Assembly: GCA_964533275.1 (NCBI GenBank)
Contig: CAZHJK010000011.1
Span: 5,572 to 69,571, forward strand
Length of the DNA stretch: 64,000 nt
Source of the DNA: an uncultured Eubacteriaceae bacterium
GTDB taxonomy: Bacteria > Bacillota > Clostridia > Eubacteriales > Garciellaceae
Direction: 5' to 3'
Made by a program: the position numbers and the translations under genes. Below the pieces are notes generated by a model, which saw only the letters and a program-made list of their open reading frames with translations, searched no databases and was not told where the DNA came from. This document shows, piece after piece, positions 20,319-27,477 of this stretch; position 1 is the first letter of the stretch; the number at the start of each line of letters is the position of its first letter.

Positions 20319-21038
20319 TTATCTTTGCTTTTTCTTAAGAGTAATTCCTGCTGTTACAATAGCTGCGCCAGCTAGGAAGAATAATGCAGCTGGGGTTCCA
20401 CCAGTTTGTGGTAGTTTGGCACCACCTAATGGTACATCTTCATCTTCAATGATTACTACATCCTCGTCAGGATCTTCAGCAGGTCCTAGGGGTGGATCCT
20501 CATCTTCAATAAGTAATATTTCTTCACCTGAAATTGTGAAAATCCACCTATTACTATGGCTTAATCCCATAAATTCATTTCCAGTTTCTAGTCCTGGCAA
20601 AGATGCTTCAACATTCAATTCTTGGACATCCCCTGGTTGGAATAGGCCAAGAAAAATACCATCTTCTGAGGCAAAATCTATCATTTTACCTTCATGTATA
20701 ACATCCTCTTCTAAAGTAACTTTCATTTGAATTTGCTTATATAAATCAGGTTCTTCCTCAAGTGGTTCTTCATCTAATCTTTCTGCTCTTAAATATATCT
20801 CTACTTCATTAACATAATTATTTGCAATAGTTAAATTACTGGTTATTGAATCTCCAGGTGTCATATTTAATATATTTATAAGATTTTGATCTTGGGGTAT
20901 TATTTCAAATTCTAAATCCTTACTCTCTACACTTAAATCATTTGCAAATACAGAAGTAGTAAATACCATTGAAAGAACTGCTATTAACACAAATAAGCTT
21001 AAAAATATATTTTTCTTTTTCTTTATTTTTATTATCAT
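20319..21038 (-). CDS. LPXTG (LPQTG) cell-wall-anchored protein with a TasA-like beta-sandwich-type N-domain and an acidic repeat
   Basis: Signal peptide. C-terminal LPQTGG plus a hydrophobic stretch plus KKKQR. Internal repeat IEDEDxPLGxA x2. AAGGAGGG RBS. Confidence 0.85.
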   Translation of the reverse strand: MIIKIKKKKNIFLSLFVLIAVLSMVFTTSVFANDLSVESKDLEFEIIPQDQNLINILNMTPGDSITSNLTIANNYVNEVEIYLRAERLDEEPLEEEPDLYKQIQMKVTLEEDVIHEGKMIDFASEDGIFLGLFQPGDVQELNVEASLPGLETGNEFMGLSHSNRWIFTISGEEILLIEDEDPPLGPAEDPDEDVVIIEDEDVPLGGAKLPQTGGTPAALFFLAGAAIVTAGITLKKKQR

Positions 21039-21087
21039 TTACAACCCTCCTTTATAAGGCTAAGACCTTAAGGTATTTTTTAGGGCT

Positions 21088-21660
21088 TTACCAATCTGAT
21101 GTATCTACTCCCCATTGAGTTTCTGCTGCATCATTTGTAGCTTGTATACCTTCAGCAATTACTTCAATAGAAAAGCTAGCATTTGCATAATTATTATCTA
21201 TTTCTGTACTAAAGATTAATCCATCAAGCAGTTTTGAAGTTTCCTCACCTTCTTCAAGAATTTCCTTGTAGTAATACCATCCATCTATTAATATCCAATT
21301 ATCCAAATCAAGGTCTAGCTCAACTAAATTTATGTCTAGGGGTACAAGATTTTGTCCTTCTTCTACTTCTTCTGGATCCCAGCTTGGAATTAGCTGTACT
21401 CTTACATAAGTATCTATTGAACCCTGGCTAGAAACGAAAACATTTTTATCAAATTCATCACCAGGAGTTATATTTTCGATACCTTCCTCAACAGGGAAGT
21501 CTTCTTCTCCTAATAAATCATGTAGAGTAATGGCAACATCGCCAGTTACAAAGGTATTGGTAACCTCGCCTTCATCTGTAAAGAATGCTAGAGTGGCTCC
21601 TATAATGGTAAGAGCAAATACTAAAGTTGTTGCAATTAATATCATAATATTTTTTTTCAT
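21088..21660 (-). CDS. TasA/camelysin-family protein with a SipW-dependent-type signal peptide (paralogue 3)
   Basis: N-terminus MKKN...IGATLAFFTDEGEVTNTFVTGDV matches the SipW-cognate signal class. C-terminal GIQA motif. AGGAGG RBS. Confidence 0.8.
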   Translation of the reverse strand: MKKNIMILIATTLVFALTIIGATLAFFTDEGEVTNTFVTGDVAITLHDLLGEEDFPVEEGIENITPGDEFDKNVFVSSQGSIDTYVRVQLIPSWDPEEVEEGQNLVPLDINLVELDLDLDNWILIDGWYYYKEILEEGEETSKLLDGLIFSTEIDNNYANASFSIEVIAEGIQATNDAAETQWGVDTSDW

Positions 21661-21693
21661 ATAGTTTTCTCCTCCTTTTTCTAAGTTTTTAAA

Positions 21694-21731
21694 AGCTAGG
21701 GTAGGGCGTTTAAGCCCTACACCTATGCTAG
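21694..21731 (-). terminator. Intra-operon hairpin (possible partial terminator/attenuator) after TasA-like paralogue 2
   Basis: On the minus strand: tagcataggtgtagggc ttaaac gccctaccctagc, followed by only a weak UUU tract. Confidence 0.4.
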
Positions 21732-21765
21732 AATTTTAAGACAAATGCTATTATACTTGAGACTA

Positions 21766-22365
21766 TTATGGTGCCATTAAATCATCTAATTCTGACTTAG
21801 CATCGGTAAAATCAACACCTTCTGCTTGAACTGCATATGCCATGATTTCGATATCAAATTCTTTTAAATCTTCATAGCTTACATTATCAATAGTTACATT
21901 ATCAAATAAGCTGGATGTTTCATCGCCAGCTCCTACTTCAGTTTTAAAGTAGAATACTGTATTTGAACCATCCTTTTCTTCCCAATTGCTATCAAAGATG
22001 ATACTAGCAAAGGCATCTAATTCAGCAAAGGAAGAAATATCTTTTCCATAATCTAGCTTAATAGCTACCCAAACATTATCATTACTGGTGTTTTTAACCA
22101 TTGGATCCTTTGGTATCTCACGACCTGGGAGGATATTTAATGCTAAATCCTCACCAAGAGCAACATCCTCTTCGGATACATCTTCACCATCATAATCTAA
22201 ACCATCAAATAGTGGTTCTGCAAGTGCTATAGAAATGTTATCGCCTACAGTAAAGGTATTTACTTTTTCCTCTGAAGTTGCTGTAAAGTAAGCAAAGGTA
22301 ACTCCTGCTATTAAAACTGTACTTAATATTAAAGATATCATTATCATAGTTGTTCTTTTTTTCAT
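21766..22365 (-). CDS. TasA/camelysin-family protein with a SipW-dependent-type signal peptide (paralogue 2)
   Basis: MKKRT...AGVTFAYFTATSEEKVNTFTVGD. C-terminal AVQAEG. AGGAGG RBS. Confidence 0.8.
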   Translation of the reverse strand: MKKRTTMIMISLILSTVLIAGVTFAYFTATSEEKVNTFTVGDNISIALAEPLFDGLDYDGEDVSEEDVALGEDLALNILPGREIPKDPMVKNTSNDNVWVAIKLDYGKDISSFAELDAFASIIFDSNWEEKDGSNTVFYFKTEVGAGDETSSLFDNVTIDNVSYEDLKEFDIEIMAYAVQAEGVDFTDAKSELDDLMAP

Positions 22366-22394
22366 TTTTAAAGCCTCCTAGTTTTTTATTTTGC

Positions 22395-22898
22395 CTAATG
22401 TTTAGGCTGTTTTTTTACTTTGATTTTAATTAATTCTGGAATAATGGTGATAAAAACCATTATTATTAAAATACTTCCTACTACTATGATGCCTTGTGTG
22501 GTTTTAATATAGGCTATAGCATATCCTAGGTAGGGAATACTAAATACTGCTTTTCCAACCAATCTTTCAAAGGCTACAGGACCATCCACTGCATTATTGG
22601 CATCACCCTTTGTTATAAATTGCTTTTTTGTATTATCGATACTAACTACACGATGGGTTATTAGTTTTGTGCTATTTCCTGTCATTGTGTAGGTTATAAT
22701 ATCTCCAGTGGAAATATTCTCAGGGATAGATGGTTTAACATATGTCATGCTTCCCACCTGGAGACTTGGTTCCATACTGCCACTTAGTACAACAAATGGC
22801 TTATATCCTAATAGAGAAGGACCAATCAAGGCTAGGGATACTAATATCATTAAAGTTAGAATAATTATAGTTATCTTGTTATAGAGTTTTTTAATCAT
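22395..22898 (-). CDS. sipW: Signal peptidase I, SipW (ER/archaeal) type
   Basis: SGSMEPSL (Ser), THRVV (His), plus a C-terminal TM anchor as in SipW. AAGGAGGGGG RBS. Confidence 0.85.
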   Translation of the reverse strand: MIKKLYNKITIIILTLMILVSLALIGPSLLGYKPFVVLSGSMEPSLQVGSMTYVKPSIPENISTGDIITYTMTGNSTKLITHRVVSIDNTKKQFITKGDANNAVDGPVAFERLVGKAVFSIPYLGYAIAYIKTTQGIIVVGSILIIMVFITIIPELIKIKVKKQPKH

Positions 22899-22918
22899 TT
22901 ATGTCCCCCTCCTTAGGT

Positions 22919-23533
22919 TTAAGGTTGTTCTAATTGATTTGCCAAAGCTTGTCCCCATGCATCTTCTGCTGCTCCACCTTCAGCTTGTATTGCATCTGAT
23001 AGTACTTCAAGCTGGAAGCTAGACCATAGGTCAATATCTGAAACCTCTACACTTTCAAGGAGTATAGCTGTCTTAATACCTGGCTGCACGATGTCTATGT
23101 GGTAGAAGTATCCATTGTCGAAAATCCAGTTGCTATCCCATCCGTCTATAAGATGTAATGTTATAGTGCCGTCGTCTGGAGATGTTATGGTTACTATATT
23201 GCTACTTGGGTCTAGGGACATATTACCAGCTAATGTTCCTTCATTTGTTCTAAAGGTAGGTACTAGCATAACTCGGATGTAGGCGTCTACCTCATGGGGA
23301 TTATTTACATTTAGTACTTCAACTATTTTACTTGTAACATCTTCATCAGGTGTAAGTATTTCCGTGTTATCTGAATCCTCATTATTTTCAATGATTGTTG
23401 TGGTGAGGACTCCAGGTACAAAGGAATTTACTTTCGCTTGGCTTTCAGTAGAAAGTAAGGCATAGGTTGCACCTGTCATAGCTAGGATAACAACTAATAC
23501 ATATGAAATGATTATAATAGTTTTTTTATTCAT
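22919..23533 (-). CDS. TasA/camelysin-family protein with a SipW-dependent-type signal peptide (paralogue 1)
   Basis: MNKKT...TGATYALLSTESQAKVNSF. C-terminal AIQAEG. TAATG overlap with the upstream vWA gene. Confidence 0.8.
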   Translation of the reverse strand: MNKKTIIIISYVLVVILAMTGATYALLSTESQAKVNSFVPGVLTTTIIENNEDSDNTEILTPDEDVTSKIVEVLNVNNPHEVDAYIRVMLVPTFRTNEGTLAGNMSLDPSSNIVTITSPDDGTITLHLIDGWDSNWIFDNGYFYHIDIVQPGIKTAILLESVEVSDIDLWSSFQLEVLSDAIQAEGGAAEDAWGQALANQLEQP

Positions 23534-25800
23534 TAGTTGTCACCTCCTATAAATTTGTTTATTACCCAATCAATGCTGGTAAGCCATTTTATGGGTTTTG
23601 ATTTATTTTCAAAGCTAGTCACTGCAAGATCTTTATTGATATCATGGTCACCATTTTCATCCATTCCAAGAGTATCACTAATTAGTACGGCTCCCACTGG
23701 ATCGTATTGCCATGACCAGTCTGTTTTTTCTTCTACCTCATAATATCCCTTTGGTAGATTAATAATTTCTCTAGTTTCAGTTGAACCATTAATTACTCTT
23801 ATGGTTTCGTAGAAGGTCTTTACTAGAGTTGTCTTTCCCATATCTTCGAATTGCTTAATCTCAAAGACAAAGGTCTGATTAGGATCATGCTGCCCCTCAC
23901 CATCATCAATTGTCTTTTTAATGGTCAGAGTACCTGGGATTACAATTACAGTATAGGTGCCTTCAACTATTTTTTCTGTTGCTAATGTTCCAACTGCTGG
24001 ATGATAGGTATCATCGGGATTAACTATATAATCTATTGGTGTTGCTGTGATAGTAAGATCATAATCTGTAGTATTTTCTGGTTTATCATTATCTGCGTAA
24101 TCTGGATCCCAAGTGTAATCTAGCATTCCGTTTGGATAGTCGTAGTTGACTAATTCCTCCTCTATCATTTCGCCTTGTGCTGTTGACTTACTACGAGGGA
24201 TACCTTCTCCTAGGAATATGGTATCTTCTATATCTGTAATGTTCAGCTTAAAGGGCACATTTACCAATGGATTTGGGAAGCTACCAACTTTAATTTCATC
24301 ATCTTCTTGATTTATTACATATACAGCTGAAATATTTTTAATATTAGTTGGGATATTATTGCCTCCAATAAAGTCTGGTTTAGGTTTTATATAAAGACTA
24401 CCTTGAAAAACTACTTCATCTCCTGCTCCTTCAGAAGTTTCTGGAGCAATCATCTGTGGGGGCCACTCCATATACACCCCATTAGTATCAGTTTTTAAGG
24501 TCCCGGTGTTATTACCAATAGTAAGTGTATCTCCAATATCTAACACATTTCCTTCATCATCTACAACATCAAATCTTTGATCAATATAATCTCTTACAAC
24601 TGCATTTTCTAGTGTTTCACCTAATTGCTCTGAGATTTCTCCAAAGATGTCACTTAAGCCTTGGAAGGTATCTGTAGTTTTATAATGATTTTCGCTTCCG
24701 TTTGGAAGTGGATCATTTGGTACGGGACTAAAGCCACCTGGCAACGTTCCAGGATATGGATTATTACTAGATACATTCCACATATGTGGATCTAAAGCAT
24801 TAGCCTTATCATATATTCCTATAGTATAAATGATTGTGCCATGTATACCTTTAAGGCTATCAGCAAAACCATATTCACTACTCCCATTACCCCAATTAGA
24901 ATGACCAGCTATTAGTAAGACATAGCGTGGGCGAGTGGGTGAACCTAGGGAATTGAATTTACTTAAGGCTACAGATAAACCATTATCTACAGCAACTCGA
25001 CTGCTAGGGTTAAAAGCATCTATTTCATTTTCTAAATCTGTTTTTTGAGTACCTACGGTTAACCAATCTGTAGAGGTTGTCCCACTGGGTTTAGAGTTTA
25101 TGACTACCATTTTGCTGGTAGGAGCGATTTGTGCTAAGTTATCCACAAAATCTTTAGCTGCTGTCTTTAAACCATTTTCTACAGTATTATCGCCTGAAGA
25201 CATATCCATATTGCCATTTAAACTACTAGAATTATCTAAGATTAGAACTATGTCTCCAGCTCCATCACTTGTTACAATATTAGAAGTTGCTTCTGCAGTT
25301 AGATCAATTTTAAATATTTGTCTTCCATCAGCATCTGAAGCACCAAATACACTAGCTGTTTTACTTAGTATTAAGCCGTTTTCTTCCGGGTCAACATATT
25401 CTAATGGTTCAGATGAATTAATTTGCATTATAGATTGTAAAATGGGAAAACCAAATGTTGAGTATGGTTTCCAAACCTCTTGTTCTTCTTTCTTTATTTC
25501 TTCTTCTTGAGTTTGCATGTCGGAATTTTCAATAGGAATTTCTTCATTATCTTCCTCTGGATCTTCAACAATTTCTTCTTCTGGGAGATTCTCTATAGGA
25601 GATGAATTTTCAGGTTCTTCTTCTAGATTTTCTTCCTCAGGTTCAGTTAATTGTGATGATATTTCATTTAATGGACTATCTGTTTCCTGTGCTATAGCTA
25701 CTAATGAAGAGGTTCCCAATGATATAAGTAGTAACAATGTTGTAACTATGCTAGTAATTTTTTTGTAATTTACTAATTTCTTGAACTTTCTAAATTTCAT
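23533..25800 (-). CDS. Secreted von Willebrand factor A (vWA) domain protein with an acidic linker and a C-terminal Cna-B/prealbumin-like domain (candidate tip adhesin)
   Basis: Signal/TM at the N-terminus and a Glu-rich region. MIDAS DxSxS (ILDNSSS). C-terminal GYYEVEEKTDWSWQY-type fold motif. No LPXTG. AGGAAGGTGG RBS. Confidence 0.75.
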   Translation of the reverse strand: MKFRKFKKLVNYKKITSIVTTLLLLISLGTSSLVAIAQETDSPLNEISSQLTEPEEENLEEEPENSSPIENLPEEEIVEDPEEDNEEIPIENSDMQTQEEEIKKEEQEVWKPYSTFGFPILQSIMQINSSEPLEYVDPEENGLILSKTASVFGASDADGRQIFKIDLTAEATSNIVTSDGAGDIVLILDNSSSLNGNMDMSSGDNTVENGLKTAAKDFVDNLAQIAPTSKMVVINSKPSGTTSTDWLTVGTQKTDLENEIDAFNPSSRVAVDNGLSVALSKFNSLGSPTRPRYVLLIAGHSNWGNGSSEYGFADSLKGIHGTIIYTIGIYDKANALDPHMWNVSSNNPYPGTLPGGFSPVPNDPLPNGSENHYKTTDTFQGLSDIFGEISEQLGETLENAVVRDYIDQRFDVVDDEGNVLDIGDTLTIGNNTGTLKTDTNGVYMEWPPQMIAPETSEGAGDEVVFQGSLYIKPKPDFIGGNNIPTNIKNISAVYVINQEDDEIKVGSFPNPLVNVPFKLNITDIEDTIFLGEGIPRSKSTAQGEMIEEELVNYDYPNGMLDYTWDPDYADNDKPENTTDYDLTITATPIDYIVNPDDTYHPAVGTLATEKIVEGTYTVIVIPGTLTIKKTIDDGEGQHDPNQTFVFEIKQFEDMGKTTLVKTFYETIRVINGSTETREIINLPKGYYEVEEKTDWSWQYDPVGAVLISDTLGMDENGDHDINKDLAVTSFENKSKPIKWLTSIDWVINKFIGGDN

Positions 25801-25895
25801 TGGTTTTTCACCACCTTCCTAATTTTTTAATTCTTTGCTGTAGAAACTTAAACTTTTCATGGGCATTCATCCTTTTTTATTTTTAATTAAGTAAA

Positions 25896-26000
25896 TAAAA
25901 AAGCTGCCAAATATATTTGGCAGCTGAACCGTCGTAGTATAAATACCTTAGACTTCAAACTTTGCGTCCTTATCTTTCGATAAGTTTGCCTTTATCAAAT
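25896..26000 (-). promoter_or_regulatory. c-di-GMP-I (GEMM-I) riboswitch, operon-proximal copy, with its own intrinsic terminator
   Basis: The minus strand reads AAAGGCAAACUUAUCGAAAGAUAAGGACGCAAAGUUUGAAGUCUAAGG...ACGACGGUUCAGCUGCCAAAUAUAUUUGGCAGCUUUUUU. GGCAAAC, the GAAA tetraloop hairpin, GGACGCAAAG and UCUAA match the Vc2-type consensus. Confidence 0.8.
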
Positions 26001-26088
26001 TTAGATTTATTATATTATTTTAGAATTTAATATTTTATACTAATTCCTCCTTTCATACACTATTAACACTTAGTTAAAGTGCTTAATA

Positions 26089-26197
26089 AAAAACCAAAAG
26101 CTGCCAAAATTAATTTGGCAGCTGAACCGTCATAGTACAAGACTTTAGACTTCGAGCTTTGCGCCCTTATCTTTCGATAAGTTTGCCTTTGTCAAAT
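26089..26197 (-). promoter_or_regulatory. c-di-GMP-I (GEMM-I) riboswitch, distal copy, with its own intrinsic terminator
   Basis: Second ~100-nt copy (GGCAAACUUAUCGAAAGAUAAGGGCGCAAAGCUCGAAGUCUAAAG...CAGCUGCCAAAUUAAUUUUGGCAGCUUUUGGUUUUUU). Differences from the proximal copy fall mostly in loops or stem positions. Confidence 0.8.
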
Positions 26198-26387
26198 AAG
26201 TAGTATTTAATTCTTACTAAATATATCTATTTACTATGCTTAGGAATATATATACACTGGAAATTTTTGTTTAAACACAATTTTTATTAGTTATTAAGTT
26301 AACAAGTTTTATTTTGGACTGACACAAATGTATGTATGTGGTAATATAATATAAATAACTCTTTGTTTCTTTATGAAAATAAAAACA

Positions 26388-26505
26388 AACTGAACAGGCG
26401 ATGGACGCTTTTGCGTTTCATAGTGGCCGGGCTATCATATGATAGCAGCAGATGATATTTACATCTGTGGGACAGAATTAATATTGTTCCATAGATGTTT
26501 TTTAT
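26388..26505 (+). promoter_or_regulatory. NiCo (czcD-motif) riboswitch with an overlapping terminator
   Basis: CUGAACAGGCGAUGGACGC...CAUAGUGGCCGGGC...GCAGCAGAUGAUAUUUACAUCUGUGGGACAG matches my recollection of the czcD motif. The terminator acatctgtgggaca / tgttccatagatgt + TTTTTT shares its 5' arm with the aptamer's 3' end. A CDF gene lies downstream. Confidence 0.7.
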
Positions 26506-26574: not shown

Positions 26575-27477
26575 ATGAAAAAAGAAAATCAACAATTTAA
26601 TAATCAGCAAATTGCAATGAGGATATCAACAGCCACTATTATTGTTAATCTAGTGCTATCAATATTAAAGTTTTTTGCGGGAATATTAGCTAATTCAGGA
26701 GCAATGATATCAGATGCAGTTCATTCAGCATCAGATGTATTCAGTACATTTATTGTAATTATAGGAGTAAATATTTCTAATAAAAAGTCAGATGAGAAGC
26801 ATCAATATGGGCATGAACGGTTAGAATGTGTTGCAGCTATTATATTAGCAATTATTTTATTAGCTACTGGAATAGGCATAGGGCTTAACGGACTGAATAA
26901 AATTTTTAATAAAAATTATGGAAAGCTTCTGATTCCAGGGCTTTTAGCATTAATTACGGCAATAGTATCTATTATTATAAAAGAATGGATGTATTGGTAT
27001 ACAAGGGCAGCTGCTAAAAGGATTAATTCTGGTGCTCTTATGGCAGATGCTTGGCACCACCGTTCTGATGCACTGTCATCAGTAGGTAGTTTTATTGGTA
27101 TTTTTGGTGCTAGACTTGGGTTTCCTATTCTTGATCCAATCGCCAGTGTTATTATATGTTTATTTATTGGTAAAGCAGCATTTGATATTTTTAAGGATTC
27201 TATAGAAAAATTAGTAGATAAATCCTGTAATGAAGAAGTTGTTAAGTTAATGAGGAAGGTAATTTTAGAGCAAGAGGGAGTACTTGGTATTGATGAAATA
27301 AAAACCAGAATGTTTGGTTCAAAAGTATATGTTGATATTGAAATTGCTGCTGATGGAAGCAAATCACTAAATGATACCCATGACATTGCAGAAGCAGTTC
27401 ATAACTCCATTGAAAAGGAGTTTTCAATGGTTAAACATTGTATGGTACATGTAAACCCTAGAGATTACAGGAAATAA
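26575..27477 (+). CDS. Cation diffusion facilitator (CDF) family divalent-metal efflux transporter
   Basis: 6 TM with metal-site motifs (SDAVHSASD, HHRSDALSS) and a C-terminal cytoplasmic domain. GGAGG RBS. Confidence 0.9.
   Translation: MKKENQQFNNQQIAMRISTATIIVNLVLSILKFFAGILANSGAMISDAVHSASDVFSTFIVIIGVNISNKKSDEKHQYGHERLECVAAIILAIILLATGIGIGLNGLNKIFNKNYGKLLIPGLLALITAIVSIIIKEWMYWYTRAAAKRINSGALMADAWHHRSDALSSVGSFIGIFGARLGFPILDPIASVIICLFIGKAAFDIFKDSIEKLVDKSCNEEVVKLMRKVILEQEGVLGIDEIKTRMFGSKVYVDIEIAADGSKSLNDTHDIAEAVHNSIEKEFSMVKHCMVHVNPRDYRK

Follow-up and report, generated by a model that had tools for sequence, protein, structure and literature searches.

Tandem arrangements of c-di-GMP-I riboswitches are known both from experiment and from genome surveys. 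The triple array Bc3-5 of B. thuringiensis CT-43 is experimentally established as an ON switch, whose response becomes more stringent and digital with each added unit (Zhou et al. 2016, PMC4759541). For c-di-GMP-I riboswitches, 347 doublets and 12 triplets, more than for any other class, were counted by Sherlock et al. (2022, PMC9481103), who assign them to the 'pseudo-cooperative' type of tandem with an identical ligand and multiple expression platforms. A survey from 2025 again reports c-di-GMP riboswitches to be enriched in tandem arrangements (PMC12452182). The sequence-only reading had called the class not new, and this is fully in line with both Zhou et al. and Sherlock et al.; tandem c-di-GMP-I riboswitches are well documented, and our locus adds another case.

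The window analyzed in this study is a 64-kb stretch of DNA from an uncultured Clostridia-like bacterium. Its whole length was scanned by cmscan against Rfam 15 at the gathering thresholds, which resulted in three matches: two to RF01051 (c-di-GMP-I) on the minus strand, and one to the NiCo riboswitch on the plus strand. The upstream aptamer, referred to as unit 1, maps to 26197-26114 (75.0 bits, E 6.6e-13), and the downstream aptamer, unit 2, to 26000-25916 (79.8 bits, E 4.7e-14). Each spans the full model (positions 1-87 of 87) and passes the RF01051 gathering score of 35 bits. The sequence-only reading had rested on the GEMM-I hallmarks GGCAAAC, a GAAA-capped hairpin, GG(A/G)CGCAAAG and UCUAA; these are all present, and the two full-length covariance model matches are in good agreement with it. 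Unit 2 matches the consensus in every conserved block. In both copies, P2 reads CUUAUC-GAAA-GAUAAG and is capped by a GNRA (GAAA) tetraloop, while P3 contains tetraloop-receptor-like halves (UCUAAA/CUAUGA in unit 1, UCUAAG/CUACGA in unit 2). Both also carry the ligand-contact positions, namely the G before GCAAAC, the first A of CGCAAAG, and the C in GCUGCC, which we take to be G20, A47 and C92 in the Vc2 numbering. We consider it probable that this leader contains two c-di-GMP-I riboswitches, both complete and acting independently one after the other, each composed of an aptamer and its own terminator, and both of ON polarity.

Each aptamer is followed by an intrinsic terminator on the same strand. 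That of unit 1 (26088..26123, minus) reads AGCUGCCAAA-UUAAU-UUUGGCAGCU and continues with UUUUGGUUUUUU; that of unit 2 (25893..25925, minus) reads AGCUGCCAAA-UAUA-UUUGGCAGCU and continues with UUUUUUAUUU. The strong hairpin with a U-run noted earlier for each copy was recovered by the terminator scan as 10-bp, G+C-containing hairpins plus U-runs at 26123-26099 and 25925-25902 (minus). Four terminator-like sites were found in the region, compared to 0.4 expected from shuffles. On the level of sequence, both units are therefore supported as bona fide c-di-GMP-I aptamers, each with its own predicted terminator.

Aptamer and terminator physically overlap in both units. The 5' arm of terminator 1 covers the last 10 nt of aptamer 1, and the 5' arm of terminator 2 covers the 3' end of aptamer 2. 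Within the AGCUGCCAAA of each unit, AGCU forms the 3' strand of the P3 base, and the adjacent GCC holds the conserved C of the ligand pocket. Since the terminator 5' arm is at the same time the aptamer 3' end, the two structures exclude each other, and ligand should give read-through. When the 108-nt units were folded, the terminator was part of the minimum free energy structure in either case, with -28.9 kcal/mol for unit 1 versus -23.5 kcal/mol with the Rfam aptamer pairs enforced, and -27.1 kcal/mol versus -21.3 kcal/mol for unit 2. Without ligand, the terminator fold thus beats the aptamer fold by 5.4-5.8 kcal/mol, and once the aptamer pairs are enforced, just a 6-bp remnant hairpin can form. 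As the terminator is predicted to be more stable by default and would be removed by the ligand-stabilised aptamer, these folding energies point to an ON (anti-termination) switch.

Conservation of both structures was assessed on 8 units from four loci: the two units of the window, two of a homologous doublet on the metagenome contig FZPS01000215.1 (FZPS in the following), one on another contig of the same genome, and three in the relative G032. In the aptamer helices, 93.4% of the alignment cells are paired and 5 pairs have changed on both sides. For the terminator helix, the corresponding values are 96.3% and 4 pairs, e.g., GCUGCC/GGCAGC, GCCACC/GGUGGC, and GCCGCC/GGCGG. Register-shifted controls, in comparison, are 25-54% paired (25-49% for the aptamer helices). 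As the 8 units are few and related, the covariation supports the two structures, but is no independent proof. Four alignment columns (129-132) belong to the aptamer helix and the terminator helix alike; on the level of sequence, these shared columns are a signature of mutual exclusion. A conserved P1 helix was also sought: AUUUG/CAAAU (5 bp) is possible in both window copies and is not kept in the units of FZPS, G032 and contig C3 of the same genome.

According to the mechanism that we propose, about 10 nt per unit would serve a double use: the base of P3 contributes its 3' strand, followed by the C paired with one of the ligand guanines and then by CAAA. When c-di-GMP is absent, the 10-bp terminator would fold and transcription would halt. 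When c-di-GMP is bound, the shared nucleotides would be kept in the aptamer, the terminator would be blocked, and RNA polymerase would read through. Presumably, both units act in series on one transcript, which would then get to the VWA/TasA-like/SipW/LPXTG genes just when both checkpoints have been passed.

If both checkpoints are needed, expression should approximate the product of two occupancy curves, with a very low leak and a somewhat sharper ON response. We explored this with an equilibrium model of two independent units of equal affinity. The modelled EC10-EC90 span is 40-49-fold for two units versus 81-fold, and the apparent Hill coefficient for two units is about 1.13-1.19. Basal read-through is squared by the second unit, e.g., from 10% to 1%. 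The expectation of the sequence-only reading, that two attenuators in series make expression a steep function of c-di-GMP, holds as far as a somewhat sharper ON response is concerned; with a modelled apparent Hill coefficient of about 1.2, however, 'steep' is overstated. The model suggests that what the tandem mainly gains would be a tight OFF state, not steepness. As real switches are under kinetic control, the equilibrium model is just a guide.

The regulated operon comprises six genes on the minus strand (20319..25800), delimited from the ORF list and from Pfam and NCBIfam matches. In order, they encode a 755-aa VWA protein, a BsaA-like protein (204 aa), a signal peptidase of the SipW type (167 aa), two proteins of 199 and 190 aa that are TasA/BsaA-like and carry SipW-type signal peptides, and finally a protein of 239 aa with a doubled-LPXTG anchor. 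The VWA matches of the 755-aa protein fall under the Pfam cut-off (E about 0.004). The earlier assignment of the two riboswitches to the leader of a fibre operon is supported by these VWA/TasA-like/SipW/LPXTG genes, which follow on the same strand.

The genome (2.70 Mb, 99.99% complete) reveals 11 GGDEF and 4 EAL domain matches as well as eight RF01051 riboswitches. Six of the latter lie beyond this leader, ahead of a type IV pilin, a Flp/Tad cluster, two flagellum-related-looking loci, a second fibre operon, and one gene cut by a contig end. From the GGDEF/EAL domains and the eight RF01051 riboswitches we conclude that a c-di-GMP regulon is clearly in place.

The second fibre operon is headed by a mixed tandem on contig C3:116184-116700 (L004 1188-1700) of the same genome. 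Here, a c-di-GMP-II riboswitch (RF01786, 67.1 bits), which is overlapped by a terminator of its own, is followed 228 nt downstream by a c-di-GMP-I riboswitch (79.5 bits) that likewise has its own terminator. The operon is again of the SipW/BsaA/LPXTG type, and its 656-aa first gene product is unrelated to the VWA protein. In relatives from the same family, the class II switch stands ahead of EPS-type genes instead. The combination of class II followed by class I does not appear in Table 1 of Sherlock et al. (PMC9481103), and we found no listing of it in the literature.

Upstream of unit 1, a sigma-70-type promoter is predicted at 26245..26273 (minus), with the -35 element TAAACA at 26273-26268, a 17-nt spacer, and the -10 element TATATT at 26250-26245. 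It is the best candidate for the leader promoter, matching 9/12 positions in a consensus scan only; the block AGTGTATA...AT around its -10 element is kept in the homologous FZPS leader. Neither between the units nor ahead of the VWA gene does the ORF list contain an ORF of at least 60 aa. A putative upstream ORF of 13 codons, read from the sequence at 25819..25860 (minus), encodes MKSLSFYSKELKN, and its stop codon lies immediately next to the Shine-Dalgarno sequence of the VWA gene. In the alignment with the FZPS leader, its ATG falls on the main ORF's start codon. This small ORF may be the remnant of a first gene that was exchanged, or may serve for coupling. Divergent from the fibre leader, the NiCo riboswitch (RF02683, 58.3 bits) is located at 26380-26477 (plus), together with a terminator-like hairpin at 26461-26498 (plus), ahead of the gene for a CDF cation exporter (26575-27477).

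The two units form a direct repeat with a period of 197-198 nt. The near-repeats were earlier placed about 95 nt apart, close to the 98 nt that separate the end of the terminator 1 stem from aptamer 2. Over the aptamer and terminator core, the copies are 88% identical, while their flanks have largely diverged. A search with the exact P3-plus-terminator DNA pattern returned nothing from the genome contigs or from a first metagenome scan. With a looser terminator pattern a single contig was found, FZPS01000215.1; the homologous doublet on it has a period of 191 nt and terminators of the same motif (CAGCUGCCAAA...UUUGGCAGC). The FZPS copies are 91% identical to each other, whereas window and FZPS copies share 78-81% identity. 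The spacers of the two loci have diverged apart from the exact 11-mer ATGAAAGGAGG, which in the window occupies the position equivalent to the unit 1 -10 element. The higher identity within than between genomes, together with the shared 11-mer, favours one old duplication of promoter plus riboswitch, with subsequent homogenisation of the riboswitch parts, over independent duplications, which seem less likely.

Two further observations concern the FZPS locus. Its second aptamer (L019 3163-3248) has its best match not in RF01051, but in the variant family c-di-GMP-I-GGC (RF03167, 66.1 bits). Its downstream gene was considered as a homologue of the VWA protein and rejected, as no homology was detectable. 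With the first gene (656 aa) of the second fibre operon it gives a weak match (E 0.003) in a single comparison, which is only suggestive.

The conserved 11-mer ATGAAAGGAGG forms an island in the inter-unit spacer at 26046..26056 (minus). It resembles a full-length Shine-Dalgarno sequence and is identical at 11/11 positions in the FZPS spacer (L019 3111-3121). Within the 64-kb window, GAAAGGAGG occurs once, in this island. No usable start codon is present 3-12 nt downstream. Orphan copies of such motifs are not rare, given that 7/12 AAGGAGG motifs in the window lack an ORF. Among 19 arrays in relatives, not in a single case was an SD-like spacer motif found outside the terminator stem, and thus, it is no general feature of tandems. 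From the sequences compared, the conservation in FZPS appears to be the only property by which the motif stands out. The 16S 3' end, the source of the organism's own anti-SD, is absent from the assembly. STAB-SD elements are a type of 5' mRNA stabiliser (PMC4113751), and by analogy we speculate that ATGAAAGGAGG might act as a stabiliser of this type.

These observations can be combined into a joint reading, which we regard as unlikely in its entirety: an old 197-bp duplication of promoter and riboswitch, copies kept alike by gene conversion, a second promoter that turned into the SD-like ATGAAAGGAGG protecting the mRNA, and two fibres set to two c-di-GMP thresholds. If ATGAAAGGAGG binds 30S in the manner of the B. 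thuringiensis cry3A STAB-SD, transcripts past the first checkpoint would be spared 5'-to-3' decay. The tandem riboswitch would then have gained a layer of mRNA stability, and each of the organism's two different fibres would appear at a c-di-GMP threshold of its own, the two thresholds being built differently.

The spacer also bears on the question whether both units indeed work in series. Alternatively, a second promoter in the spacer could let some transcripts pass unit 2 only, such that the units would operate in parallel and not strictly serially, with unit 1 gating an extra, more tightly controlled source. The inter-unit spacer (26001..26087, minus) is unrelated to the flanks of unit 1 save for GTGTAT (26060-26055), which in an alignment of the 200-nt units sits at the same offset as the -10 region of the unit 1 promoter and indicates that the original repeat unit included this region. 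Moreover, a TATAAT occurs in this AT-rich spacer some 16 nt ahead of aptamer 2, and the 197-nt period exceeds that of most arrays in relatives, whose spacers mostly measure 32-112 nt. However, a consensus scan of the spacer minus strand found no promoter-like site of at least 9/12. The homologous -10 element now reads TATGAA, and in the FZPS leader ATGAAAGGAGG stands at this position. The TATAAT, in turn, has no convincing -35 element, and its FZPS counterpart is TTTAAT. We therefore hold parallel units to be improbable, and two checkpoints in series remain our preferred interpretation.

The two copies differ in a few positions: opposite a G in P3 there is either U or C, resulting in a G-U or a G-C pair, and further changes affect one bulge base and the loop of distal P3. 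The differences thus fall in loops and stems, as described before from the sequence; the alignments add one change that had gone unflagged, an A to G exchange in the conserved GAC of GGACGCAAAG in unit 1. Related aptamers have A at this position in 41/45 cases and G in 3/45 (in another count, G in 4 of about 47). Furthermore, the distal P3 stem of unit 1 is short, with 2-3 bp and one mismatch. On these grounds, the affinity of unit 1 may differ from that of unit 2.

Taken further, unit 1 could be a duplicate in decay, with a terminator that attenuates constitutively or under poor regulation, leaving only one working sensor. Its lower score (75.0 versus 79.8 bits), the rare G in GAC, and the mismatched and shortened distal P3 would fit this picture. 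Yet unit 1 still scores 40 bits over the gathering threshold with all ligand-contact positions intact, and the same G variant occurs outside the window in both FZPS aptamers and in one aptamer of the relative G030, all of them high-scoring. The 88% identity of the riboswitch parts next to flanks that have diverged beyond recognition argues for selection on both copies, and a ligand-blind upstream terminator would simply silence the operon. We rate a single working sensor as quite improbable; nothing suggests that the upstream aptamer is dead.

According to the legend of Fig. 3 in Sherlock et al. (PMC9481103), G rather than A at the ligand-selectivity position marks c-di-GMP as opposed to cGAMP aptamers. 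It is very improbable that the units have OFF polarity, or that they sense a different cyclic dinucleotide, e.g., 3'3'-cGAMP: c-di-GMP-I riboswitches of either polarity do exist, and 7/45 of the relatives' aptamers carry A at the selectivity position, but with the terminator 5' arm inside the aptamer, ligand-stabilised folding can only prevent termination, and both copies have G (in unit 1 in the context AAAGGCAAAC), not A. Some of the A-type aptamers in relatives are located inside tandem arrays, and one further case was identified in the same genome on contig C1:221686-221794 (L007), where an RF01051 match of 66.4 bits with A at this position (AAAAGCAAAC) lies upstream of Flp/Tad genes. Judged from their sequences, these may be cGAMP-type or promiscuous variants in Clostridia-like genomes.

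Turning to the distribution in relatives, RF01051 riboswitches are present in 38/60 genomes (39/61 when G000 is counted). At least 21 arrays of 2-4 units, verified by their coordinates, were found in 14 of the 60 relatives. Their cargo is diverse and includes secreted proteins, prepilin peptidase and Flp pili, flagellar rod genes, and repeat proteins. The largest array among the individual loci is given by G048 (C28:1312-1853, L031), in which four c-di-GMP-I units with approximately 155-nt spacing, each with a terminator, precede a gene for a 348-aa secreted protein. Sherlock et al. (PMC9481103), in the sections drawn on here, report doublets and triplets only and no quadruplet.

In doublets of the genera g10 and g16 (L021-L025, L027), whose cargo is a secreted protein of about 310 aa, the first unit is followed by a G-rich arm and a U-run, while the last aptamer runs into AGGAGAGUUUU...AUG, with the Shine-Dalgarno sequence inside the expression platform. 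Going by this layout, they may constitute a 'bi-mechanism' c-di-GMP-I tandem, acting first on transcription and then on translation.

Homologues of the 755-aa protein were identified in 12 relatives; a protein search of the genome contigs with the 755-aa protein gave no confirmed close relative. On contig C33 of G032 (L014 863-1440), three RF01051 units, each with a terminator overlapping the aptamer 3' end, head a syntenic operon composed of a VWA-protein homologue, BsaA-like proteins, two SipW, and an LPXTG-double anchor protein. On the other hand, an Rfam scan of the upstream DNA retrieved for the VWA-gene orthologues or homologues in G003, G007, G011, G023, G043, G050, G052, and G058, a set that includes four g22 genomes, revealed no c-di-GMP riboswitch. 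Across relatives, the riboswitch copy number on this operon type is hence 0, 2 or 3. The riboswitch-free orthologues indicate that riboswitch control is lineage-specific and not essential to this operon type. With regard to the claim that the cargo differs from that of known tandems, the difference to cspABCDE of B. thuringiensis was confirmed, but the cargo is not unique, given the orthologous G032 operon with its triple array, and tandems are commonplace in the order.

A literature search found no paper tying c-di-GMP riboswitches to SipW/TasA-type operons. The association with this cargo may therefore be unpublished, which would be a modest extension of what is known. Knowledge of the riboswitch mechanism itself is unchanged by this locus. 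Its significance lies in a SipW/TasA-BsaA-type fibre operon of an uncultured Clostridia-like bacterium that appears to be wired directly to c-di-GMP by two RNA checkpoints. This can be used for the annotation of biofilm and adhesion regulons, and the units could provide natural parts for tight c-di-GMP reporters. The side observations, namely the SD-like element in the spacer, the indications of concerted evolution, and the tandem of class II followed by class I, may be worth more attention than the two c-di-GMP-I units themselves.

Among described systems, the sipW-bsaA biofilm-matrix operon of Clostridium perfringens (PMC7395162) has the cargo type in common with our locus, i.e., SipW and polymerising subunits of the BsaA/TasA family. 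It is temperature-regulated according to Obana et al. (2020), and riboswitches or c-di-GMP appear just in the reference list of that paper. Vc2 of Vibrio cholerae, the structural reference for RF01051, shares the GAAA tetraloop and its receptor as well as the G, A, and C ligand contacts; unlike the window units, it is a single aptamer without a directly overlapping terminator. The tandems described by Sherlock et al. (2022) agree with our locus in riboswitch class, architecture, multiple expression platforms, and identical ligand, and the leader, with two complete riboswitches, each with its own platform, upstream of one operon, would probably belong to their pseudo-cooperative type. The closest counterpart is Bc3-5, which likewise consists of near-identical complete units with terminators overlapping the aptamer 3' ends in the 5' UTR of a cell-surface protein operon. 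Bc3-5 comprises three units, precedes the genes of the five surface proteins cspABCDE, and was characterized by experiment, whereas the window contains two units in a Clostridia-like genome, predicted from sequence, which precede a fibre operon of the SipW/TasA-BsaA type that includes a VWA protein and a single LPXTG anchor protein.
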